This document shows, piece after piece, positions 15,001-18,000 of a stretch of DNA of 41,846 nucleotides. The number at the start of each line of letters is the position of its first letter. The stretch's first letter is position 1. The position numbers were made by a program. The stretch comes from a virus (taxonomy: Duplodnaviria; Heunggongvirae; Uroviricota; Caudoviricetes): the IMG/VR virus record IMGVR_UViG_2778261638_000003, positions 1 through 41,846 of that record; one strand, given 5' to 3'.

Positions 15001-18000
15001 CGTTTTAAATGTACAGGCATTTCTGCTGTAGTTTTTTCCCCTGACATCCATTCACGAACCCATCTTGAAACTTGGACTGCAAATTTGGGCGATAGCCACT
15101 GCGCTAGATTAATAGCGATGTCAGGATGCACCCATGTCCCTTGGTTTTCAGGTCTTCCACCTTTAAATGATTGAATTAACTCCGATATGGGAATTCCCAT
15201 ATCGCGTGATAATTCGTCAAAAAACTCTTGAGTAGTTTTGAGTCTAGTGTAATCAGAGAGCAGTTTGCCCGCAGTTCTACACATTGATGTGGCGTTTATG
15301 TAACCATCTTTGGCACGTAAATGTATTATTTCGCCGTCAATTTCACGAGAAATCAAAGATAATTGAAAGGACGTCATTGAAAATTCCTTAAGTTGGAGAG
15401 TTCTGGAGCATTAAGGCGAGGTGGCAGTAATGCACCATCAGTTATCTTTTGATACTGACGCAATCGGGCCTGATGTGCAACGCCTTGCAAGTATGTAACT
15501 CATTGAAAACGATCGTTTTTATCTATTGACGTCAAATGGCAAACTGTCATTGTGCGGCTATGGCAAGTGGCAAATGCTTATAAATCATATGGATATAAAG
15601 AGTACAGAAAGAATTGTTTTCTCTAGGATATGAGTATGCGTCCAATGCTGATTGGTTGAATTTTGTTCTTGTTTTAAAGGGGGAGAGTTTAAAGTGTTGG
15701 CAGTGATGTATTGGATAGTTAGAATTGCTACGGGTGCTTGAGGCTGTCTGCCTCGGGCATGAACACCAAAGGCAGATAGAGAAAAGCCCCAGTTAACATT
15801 ATGCGTCCGGCAAGACGCTTAACATTAATCTGAGGCCACATCTATGCTCTGCATACGTAGATTAGCCTCTTACCGACCAAAAGGTCAAGGAGAAGCAGGC
15901 TATGAAGCAGCAAAAGGCGATGTTAATCGCCCTGATCGTCATCTGTTTAACCGTCGTTGTGACGGCACTGGTAACGAGGAAAGACCTCTGCGAGGTACGA
16001 ATCCGAACCGGCCAGACGGAGGTCGCTGTCTTCACAGCTTACGAACCTGAGGAGTAAGAGACCCGGCGGGGGAGAAATCCCCCGCCACCTCTGATGTGTC
16101 AGGCATCCTCAACGCACCCGTACTTACCCGCTTCGGCGGGTTTTTTGTTGTGGTGGATAAATTAGCTTTTTGTGTACTCTTTTAGCCGTAAGTCTTGAGA
16201 GACTGACTGTTGTAAATAGAATCGTGTTTGCTTAGTTAGCGCGCAGGGAGAAGAGGGATGGACCCTTCAGGGGAACGCTATTAATCTGGAAAATTTCTGT
16301 TTATGGATTTCAAGAAGTTGCGCAAAATTTTTAATAAAGATGGTCTCTATGCTGTGCGCGTTGAAAATGGGGAAATTATTAGTTGTTACTGCATTCATTG
16401 CTCACGGGCTTTGCAACAGCCTAGTGGGGCTATGTTAATATATCTCTTGAATGGGCATGTGACGGACGGATTTATGTTGCGTGAAGATGAATTTGTCACA
16501 TCATTACGGACATTAAAAGAAATTGGATTAAAAGCTGGCTTTTCTGCTTTTGAAGACGATTGAACTCATCTACAATTCAGCGCAGGGTTGACCCCCTGCT
16601 GAGTAACACCGTGCCACCGGAGAAAGCCGATGGCACATATACAACTGATCAAACATACCTCTTCTGGATTACTGCTCCCGGCAACACCGGAGAGTTGCGA
16701 ATTCTTGCATCAAATAAAAATAGGTGAGTGGATACACGCTGATTTTAAGCGCGTTCGTAACTACGCATTTCACAAGCGTTTTTTCAAACTCCTGCAACTC
16801 GGATTCGATTATTGGACTCCTGTCGGTGGGGCGATCACCTCTCGTGAACGAAAACTTGTGTCCGGTTTCGTTGATTATCTGTGTGACTCGGTCGGCCGGG
16901 AACATACGCCAGCCCTGAGTGATGCCGCAGAACAATATCTGAATACCATTGCGATACGCAGAACCTGTGATACGGCATTGCTAAAGTCATTTGATGCTTT
17001 CCGTGAATGGGTAACTATTGAGGCCGGATTTTACACCGAGCATTTTTATCCGGACGGTAGCCGTGGACGCAGGGCAAGATCTATCGCGTTTGCAAATATG
17101 GACGATACCGAGTTTCAGCAGGTTTATAAATCCGTACTGAATGTGCTTTGGAACTGGATCCTGTTCCGTAAATTTTCCTCTCCGGAACAATTCGAAAATG
17201 TTGCTGCGCAGCTGCTGGAGTTTGCGTAATGGTGGATTTGCGTAAAGCGGCTAAAGGCCATATGTGTACAGTCAGAATCCCCGGTTACTGCAATCACAAT
17301 CCTGAAACATCTGTGCTGGCGCACTACAGGCTGGCGGGGACGTGTGGAATGGCGATAAAACCACACGATATGCAGGCAGCGATTGCCTGTAACTCATGTC
17401 ACGATCTAATCGATGGGCGGGTAAAAACCAGCGATTACACCAAAGAAGAATTGCACCTGATGCATGCAGAAGGTGTTTTTCGCACGCAAGAAATCTGGAG
17501 AAATGAGGGATATTTATGATTTACCCAACAAATATCGGAAAAAGCGGGGAACATCTCCGTCTCGCAACACTGGAAAGTGTGTGGATTCAGGGAAAGTTAC
17601 GCATGTGGGGACGCTGGTCGTATATTGGTGGGGGGAAAATTGGGAGTATGTTTAACAGGTTGCTTGTATCGCACACAATGACGAAATCAGCTATCAATGA
17701 AGCACTGCGCAGTATGAAAAAATCGGGTATTGAAAAAGCTCAACTTGAAGCATTTCTGCTGGAAATTATTAATGGAAGGCAAAAGAGCTGGCTGGTGCAC
17801 TGTTCTGATACAGAGGCTTTGTTGATCGATAAGGTTATTGGTGAGGTGCTTGGTAAACATCCCGGATTAATTTATATCTTACGGCAGAGATATGAGGGGC
17901 ACGGTATGAGTAAGCGCAAAATGGCTACGCGTTTAAACGAAATATATCCTGAATGGTGTATGAGTACTTGTGAAAAGCGTATCTCTAATTGGTTGGCTAT

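Follow-up and report, generated by a model that had tools for sequence, protein, structure and literature searches.

Evidence for a complete HokD-type hok/mok/sok cassette in the nin-equivalent region of a Rac-like, LT-II-converting Escherichia coli prophage

The IMG/VR virus record IMGVR_UViG_2778261638_000003 (Caudoviricetes) comprises 41,846 nucleotides (nt), and this whole stretch is referred to here as the window. Positions 15697-16147 very likely constitute a complete HokD-type hok/mok/sok type I toxin–antitoxin (TA) cassette, located in the nin-equivalent region of a Rac-like, LT-II-converting E. coli prophage. A first-pass annotation of the same DNA had proposed a hok/mok/sok locus, and this assignment is borne out at the level of sequence, as all hallmarks examined appear present and intact. 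Its start coordinate, 15780, does not hold, as it leaves out the hok promoter, the tac element, the 5′ hairpin, and the first 48 nt of the mRNA. Because the hok promoter lies at 15697-15725 and the mRNA begins at about 15732, the start of the unit was moved 5′ of 15780. The names and definitions of the RNA elements (tac, fbi, ucb, and dcb) are those of the plasmid R1 system (PMC9841398), and the coordinates of all features are collected in Table 1.

The hok open reading frame (ORF) occupies exactly the coordinates given to it in the first-pass annotation. Its product matches the Pfam family PF01848 (HOK_GEF) over the full profile (residues 6-47, 82.9 bits against a cutoff of 22, E = 1.2e-23) and is identical to E. 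coli K-12 HokD at 50 of 51 residues, with V19 here and I19 in K-12. The K-12 protein is toxic when expressed (preprint 10.1101/2025.08.07.668861). Disruption of the hok ORF in homologues, an outcome that the first-pass annotation had held to count against its own proposal, was not encountered: an intact ORF of 49-52 amino acids (aa) is present in 33 of the 33 homologous loci checked.

The loci collected for comparison were 36 encoding Hok relatives from one-genome-per-species contigs, an R1-type plasmid locus, and phage copies. An alignment of 26 full-length mRNAs from six genera was made from these, with Escherichia, Kluyvera, Pseudocitrobacter, Photorhabdus, Pantoea, and the R1-type plasmid among the sources; conservation and pairing values given below refer to these 26 homologues. 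In the segment containing the hok Shine–Dalgarno (SD) sequence (15883-15893), the majority-base frequency is 94%.

The mok frame, which overlaps hok, also begins and ends where it had previously been placed. The aligned mok start codon, with a frame open beyond the hok start, is found in 24 of the 26 homologues, and the GAGGC at the mok SD is invariant (26/26). The register of mok relative to hok is variable. The window, phage Rac, and several Kluyvera and Escherichia copies have the +1 register, and in phage 933W, the R1-type plasmid copy, and Photorhabdus mok is in frame with hok and yields an N-terminally extended Hok. Leaders that differ in length by a single base account for this variation; relative to 933W, AAAAGGTCAAGG of the window contains one base more. 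As the start codon and SD of mok are conserved and its frame is not, it is suggested that translation through the region, rather than the Mok peptide, is what matters, a view that fits the accepted coupling model.

The antisense RNA was located by means of the phage 933W record, which annotates mokW, hokW, and a 71-nt “SokW antisense RNA”. SokW maps column for column onto positions 15852 to 15782 of the minus strand and is of equal length. The first-pass annotation had expected Sok on the minus strand at roughly 15790-15860, which is within 8 nt of this mapping. The predicted Sok consists of a 15-nt single-stranded 5′ tail, a long hairpin, and a GGGGCUUUU 3′ end. The hairpin, of the terminator type with a U tail, has a folding energy of −28.6 to −29.4 kcal/mol, and z is −4.3 when a slightly longer version is folded; the RNA is complementary to both the mok AUG and the mok SD.

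The putative Sok promoter is interwoven with elements of the opposite strand. Its −35 hexamer is the complement of the hok SD region, while its −10 hexamer abuts the dcb box and is followed by six bases and a G start. At the aligned positions, TAnnCT is present in 21 of 26 homologues and TTGACC or TTGC(C/G) in all 26. Judged from the primers used, a sokW promoter-less mutant changes the equivalent promoter hexamer (PMC8621323).

The target of the Sok 5′ tail (15837-15852) is among the least conserved segments of the leader, with a mean majority-base frequency of 61%, and sits between the SD and dcb boxes, which are 100% invariant. The variability of the tail fits a diversification of specificity, as far as the alignment can indicate. 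A YUNR U-turn motif was not found by eye in the predicted Sok-target loop.

On the sense strand, a sigma-70-type promoter places the hok transcription start at about 15732. Its −10 hexamer is conserved among homologues as TAGAAT/TATAAT. The predicted +1 coincides with the first base of a match to the RNA family RF01794 (“sok”). This match came from a scan of the whole window against Rfam, the covariance check recommended in the first-pass annotation, which returned two matches at gathering threshold. RF01794 covers 15732-15907 of the plus strand over the full-length model (105.7 bits against a threshold of 59, E = 3.6e-23).

Of 20 related loci scanned, 18 also have a match to the family 5′ of hok, with 19 hits altogether. 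These 19 hits and that of the window all lie on the hok-sense strand and extend from tac to the hok start codon. Because of this span and strand, RF01794, though named “sok antitoxin”, is, judging by these sequences, a marker of the hok mRNA leader rather than of the antisense RNA. The strand of an RF01794 match should therefore not be taken for the strand of Sok.

The 3′ part of the transcript harbors the “fold-back hairpins and a terminator” that the first-pass annotation had described: a GC hairpin (16065-16086), the fbi element (16107-16119), and, ahead of a T run, an intrinsic terminator (16126-16141). By analogy with R1 mutagenesis (PMC9841398), the GC hairpin is expected to form the protective 3′ end of the processed mRNA. 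The majority-base frequency of tac is 93%, and the dcb box is invariant in 26 of 26 homologues.

The RNA spanning 15732-16150 folds at −176.9 kcal/mol (z = −7.19 relative to dinucleotide shuffles). In the minimum-energy fold, its first 12 bases (tac) pair with fbi to form 12 base pairs (bp). Among the homologues, 87.7% of the cells form standard pairs, compared with 39-47% when the partners are slid by 1-3 columns. Changes on both sides occur at 35 pairs, whereas the slid controls give 12-18 and the shuffles average 20.8, with none of 500 attaining 35. All these counts were made on the window's own predicted fold, a structure taken from one alignment member and thus somewhat favoured; even so, the compensatory counts are clear. 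The tac/fbi helix is 91.6% paired with 3 compensatory pairs, including U-A to C-G in 8 sequences, and the ucb/mok-SD hairpin is 90.4% paired with 5.

The alternative, open form, in which tac pairs with ucb and the mok SD with dcb, was imposed by constrained folding. The boxes needed for this form are all there and are invariant in the alignment. It costs 13.2 kcal/mol in the full-length RNA and 1.6 kcal/mol when fbi is removed. In these modelled energies, the drop in the penalty upon fbi removal is the behavior that the R1 model requires.

Table 1. Elements assigned to the hok/mok/sok cassette, in window coordinates
Feature	Position	Strand	Basis or remark
hok promoter: −35 TTGGCA (15697-15702), 17-nt spacer, −10 TAGAAT (15720-15725)	15697..15725	+	Consensus scan, 10/12 matches
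hok mRNA, full length about 416 nt, tac to terminator U-run	15732..16147	+	Predicted; fold and homologues
tac (translational activator element) GGGUGCUUGAGG, mRNA 5′ end	15732..15743	+	Pairs with fbi in minimum-energy fold
5′ leader hairpin, directly 3′ of tac	15744..15779	+	93.8% paired, 3 compensatory pairs; within Rfam model
ucb (mok anti-SD) AAGCCCC	15784..15790	+	Pairs with mok SD in closed form; can pair with tac in open form
Sok antisense RNA, predicted, 71 nt	15852 to 15782	−	Alignment with annotated 71-nt SokW misc_RNA of 933W
mok Shine–Dalgarno GAGG	15832..15835	+	8 nt upstream of mok AUG
mok frame, 68 codons, +1 relative to hok, stops 7 nt before hok stop	15844..16050	+	ORF list
Sok promoter, putative: −35 TTGACC (15888 to 15883), 18-nt spacer, −10 TAATCT (15864 to 15859)	15859..15888	−	Homology and conservation
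dcb box GCCUCUUAC (GCCUC...)	15865..15873	+	Complementary to mok SD region GAGGC
hok Shine–Dalgarno AAGGAG	15887..15892	+	Sequence; complement supplies Sok −35
hok toxin gene, HokD type, 51 aa	15902..16057	+	Pfam HOK_GEF, K-12 HokD likeness, RefSeq hokD
Tyr47 codon UAC (16040-16042) followed by G; candidate TadA A-to-I site, Tyr to Cys	16040..16043	+	Within TTACGAA
3′-untranslated region (UTR) GC hairpin, 9 bp: GGCGGGGGA / GAAA / UCCCCCGCC	16065..16086	+	94.3% paired across homologues
fbi (fold-back inhibitory element) CCUCAACGCACCC	16107..16119	+	Pairs with tac
Intrinsic terminator of hok mRNA, 6-bp stem with 5 GC pairs, then T run	16126..16147	+	Terminator scan

The mechanism proposed for the cassette is drawn by homology from plasmid R1 hok/sok and phage hokW-sokW. 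In R1, a tac/fbi stem locks the mRNA in a closed form, with ucb sequestering the mok SD; 3′ trimming then gives rise to tac/ucb and SD/dcb stems, and this open form exposes the RNA to ribosomes and to Sok (PMC9841398). In the window, a constitutive promoter would likewise produce a stable hok mRNA of about 416 nt, held in the closed form by end pairing between tac and fbi. In this form, ucb would hold the mok ribosome-binding site, such that mok and hok would not be translated and Sok would be unable to bind. Slow 3′ trimming would remove fbi, upon which tac would pair with ucb and the mok SD would shift into the dcb hairpin, rendering the mRNA both translatable and targetable. The short-lived Sok, transcribed from the opposite strand, would pair over the mok start and SD, block translation of mok and hence of the coupled hok, and mark the duplex for RNase III. 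When the supply of Sok stops, whether through prophage loss, transcription shut-off, or prophage induction as shown for sokW, the processed mRNA would be translated, and the 51-aa Hok would damage the inner membrane.

By analogy with these systems, the molecular mechanism is assigned with high confidence; the biological role is less certain. Prophage addiction or maintenance is the most likely role, and help to lysis at induction is a possible one. Genes of the hok family are four-fold enriched in prophages (preprint 10.1101/2025.08.07.668861). On the strength of its sequence, the prophage probably carries a complete and active addiction or lysis-assist module.

Four observations speak against this interpretation. 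The NCBIfam Hok models match the Hok product with scores under their cutoffs. A strict sigma-70 scan did not report the Sok promoter, whose −10 (TAATCT) has 3 of 6 consensus matches and whose spacer is 18 nt. The open form is not the predicted minimum, and an arbitrarily 3′-truncated mRNA folded without constraint keeps the closed ucb/SD hairpin, with its 5′ end paired with the new 3′ end. Lastly, the chromosomal hokA, hokB, and hokC did not mediate post-segregational killing (summarised in preprint 10.1101/2025.08.07.668861), and an intact sequence is therefore no guarantee of activity.

The Stx2 phages provide the precedent for a different emphasis, in which the module is active and its main role is host lysis together with phage and toxin release at induction, as for hokW-sokW of Sp5, rather than addiction. 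hokW-sokW is a working type I TA system. Upon mitomycin C treatment, sokW RNA falls and HokW rises in a RecA-dependent manner, and deletion of hokW-sokW halves phage release (PMC8621323). In the window, the late region of the prophage carries both a pertussis-like toxin and LT-II, the release of which would depend on lysis. However, the present copy lies in the nin-equivalent region and hokW near the right end of 933W, 7 of 16 positions in the Sok 5′ tail are not shared with SokW, and the precedent derives from an Stx2 phage, not from a Rac-like phage. Lysis as the main role is thus considered possible though somewhat unlikely.

Several chromosomal hok loci are reported to be inert, and the cassette could similarly be intact in sequence and functionally a silent, selfish passenger that neither kills nor stabilises. 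Some relatives are indeed decayed: in K-12 Qin, relBE has taken the place of the entire hokD leader, locus L005 has a degenerate leader, L023 lacks the mok ATG, and the mok of L011 comprises 19 codons. In contrast, both promoters, tac, fbi, ucb, dcb, both SD sequences, both ORFs, and both terminators are intact here, and the related hokW-sokW, 91.8% identical from tac to fbi, is experimentally active (PMC8621323). A silent passenger is accordingly an unlikely description of the present locus.

A main role in abortive infection is also improbable. In this scenario, a superinfecting phage would shut off host transcription, Sok would be depleted, and Hok would kill the infected cell. The same prophage does carry other exclusion genes, such as sieB (7324-7947), yet hok genes are not enriched near defence systems (preprint 10.1101/2025.08.07.668861). 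Finally, it is most improbable that the plus-strand RF01794 match is the antitoxin gene itself, a sense small RNA with no minus-strand Sok, as the family name and the reported strand might imply, given the invariably hok-sense, tac-to-hok span of the family, the SokW annotation on the opposite strand of 933W, and the antisense orientation of the antitoxin promoter tested in PMC8621323.

Taken as a prophage addiction module with a possible part in lysis, the cassette may be subject to an extra layer of control. TadA is reported to recode hokB to Cys by A-to-I editing, with the corresponding change also described for hokC, hokD, and hokE (preprint 10.1101/2025.08.07.668861). The TTACGAA around the Tyr47 codon of the window hok (16040-16046) is invariant in 26 of 26 homologues and agrees with the sequence context of this reported Tyr-to-Cys editing in hok mRNAs, and by analogy TadA editing is a plausible means of controlling this gene. 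[quoted passage not shown]

The cassette itself is already known. RefSeq annotates an identical copy, GenBank contains one that is 98.9% identical, and experiments have been done on close relatives. Over the 601 bases surrounding the locus, the window matches a stretch of the E. coli MB07081 chromosome at 100% identity; the RefSeq annotation there is hokD. The GenBank copy is MN652886, “Escherichia phage Rac”, in which both mok and hok are annotated. Homologous DNA is present in 4726 of 5426 complete E. coli genomes, at a median of two places per genome, as well as in 79 phage records and 596 plasmid records. In other phage copies, BLAST homology starts at 15720, which delimits a conserved cassette of approximately 15720-16150.

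Some of the homologous records carry unexpected host assignments. Near-identical hok fragments lie on two very short contigs, L013 (275 bp, assigned to Acinetobacter idrijaensis) and L016 (431 bp, assigned to Xanthomonas pisi), and an “Actinobacillus phage” record has a 94.5% identical cassette. Contamination or mis-assignment seems a likelier explanation of these cases than genuine presence in such hosts.

The “nin-like region” named in the first-pass annotation is an apt description of the setting, as the cassette lies between a DUF1376/DnaT replication ORF (9804-11093) and a DUF1133 Q-like antiterminator (17516-18052). The window opens in the Rac integrase gene and continues with ralR/RalA, recT, sieB, a repressor/cro-like switch, and replication genes. 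These are followed by a KilA-N gene on the minus strand, the hok cassette, rem, DUF1367, DUF1364, and the Q-like gene. On the 3′ side of the latter lie a pertussis-like toxin operon, holins, a GH108 endolysin, the LT-II enterotoxin A and B genes, terminase, portal, and tail genes. LT-II-converting Rac-like prophages are a type known from type II enterotoxigenic E. coli and mentioned by Jobling (PMC5917428), and the window matches this type.

A promoter-like site (TTGAGA, 16 nt, TAGAAT; 10/12 matches) is found on the plus strand at 16195-16222, 3′ of the hok terminator and 5′ of the rem homologue (16303-16563). Expression of rem and the Q-like genes from this site, without reliance on upstream transcription, is possible. 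In the replication-region protein encoded at 9804-11093 (+), a T5orf172/MUG113 domain is inserted alongside DUF1376 and DnaT DNA-binding domains.

A second type I TA pair is located at 1557-1735 (+) and 1734-1928 (−), where the RalA antitoxin small RNA (Rfam RF02694, 197 bits against a threshold of 170) and a 64-aa ralR ORF lie on opposite strands. Two toxin loci are found in the late region. A pertussis-like AB5 toxin (18477-19789, +) is encoded between the Q-like gene and the holins, with its A subunit at 19046-19789 (Pertussis_S1, E = 1.5e-16) and a putative B subunit at 18477-19028 (+). The LT-II enterotoxin (21566-22703, +) follows the endolysin, and its A and B subunits match Enterotoxin_a (E = 2.9e-117) and LT-IIB (E = 1.2e-41), respectively. 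Just 5′ of the terminase, an ORF with a ParB N-terminal domain (24282-25070, +) is followed by a TET-associated glycosyltransferase, TAGT (25063-25995, E = 5.8e-36). This arrangement at 24282-25995 may point to a module for DNA modification.

Among complete genomes, MB07081 is the closest relative. By BLAST, it is co-linear with the window only for 1-1922 and 4357-23530; it differs at 1922-4357 and beyond about 24900. After the LT-II genes, another lambdoid prophage follows in MB07081, and this prophage has a partial Hok/Gef pseudogene of its own; the window runs on into structural genes. A second, partial hok near 38.1 kb of the window, expected from co-linearity with MB07081, was rejected, as a tape-measure-like coding sequence is read there.

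The present analysis contributes the mok and Sok annotations, which are without counterpart in the public records of this prophage. Modules of this kind are prone to be overlooked by automatic gene calling or labelled “hokD” alone, without mok or Sok features. To those who study LT-II-converting Rac-like phages, the cassette offers a candidate determinant of how stably the prophage is kept and how toxin is released.

Among the closest known systems is that of “Escherichia phage Rac” MN652886 (from E. coli 442/2), whose Hok and Mok proteins are identical to those of the window. The neighbouring genes are likewise shared (rem, DUF1367 (irsA), DUF1364 (ybcO), and Q). In contrast, the upstream flank differs: homology starts at window position 15720, and the KilA-N gene is absent. 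The record annotates mok and hok and has no Sok feature.

hokW-mokW-sokW of the Stx2 phages 933W and Sp5 (PMC8621323; AF125520) is likewise phage-borne and shares 91.8% identity from tac to fbi. The hokW coding sequence is 93.6% identical to the window hok, and identity in the Sok body, which comprises the stem-loop and the 3′ tail, is 98%. Both Sok RNAs are 71 nt in length, and both have a 16-nt hairpin extension relative to R1. However, the 5′ recognition tail of SokW is identical to that of the window Sok at only 9 of 16 positions, and cross-neutralisation is therefore doubtful. The two systems also differ in the mok frame, as mokW is in frame with hokW and encodes an N-terminally extended Hok, whereas the window mok is in the +1 register owing to the one extra base. 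The Hok C-terminus reads FTAYEPEE in the window and FVDYESEK in HokW. The genomic position differs as well: hokW, found by means of a published probe sequence, is located at about 58.5 kb of the 61.7-kb 933W record, and it was not found in the nin region of 933W (12-24 kb of the record).

The hok/sok (parB) system of plasmid R1 shares with the window the full order of elements: tac, 5′ hairpin, ucb, mok SD, mok AUG, dcb/Sok −10, hok SD/Sok −35, hok, 3′ hairpin, fbi, and terminator. The RNA structure is common to both, with compensatory changes, although the nucleotide identity of the two loci is only 48% in a three-way alignment. R1 Sok lacks the 16-nt insert in its hairpin, and the R1 5′ hairpin is longer. 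R1 hok/sok is plasmid-borne, and its documented role is plasmid stabilisation.

hokD (relF) of the K-12 Qin prophage, compared over NC_000913.3 1645119-1645633 and window 15888-16600, is near-identical to the window over a stretch that begins at the hok SD (about 15888) and takes in the coding sequence, the 3′-UTR hairpin, fbi, and the terminator before entering the rem homologue. In K-12, relBE, with relE adjoining, replaces everything upstream of the hok SD, such that the hok promoter, tac, ucb, the mok start, and Sok are missing. The window gene thus resembles hokD in its near-identical protein and its downstream context (rem and a Q-type gene) and departs from it in lacking the upstream relBE arrangement. 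From this sequence comparison, the window copy looks like the complete form from which K-12 hokD was cut, and the K-12 gene like a 5′-truncated, leaderless remnant.

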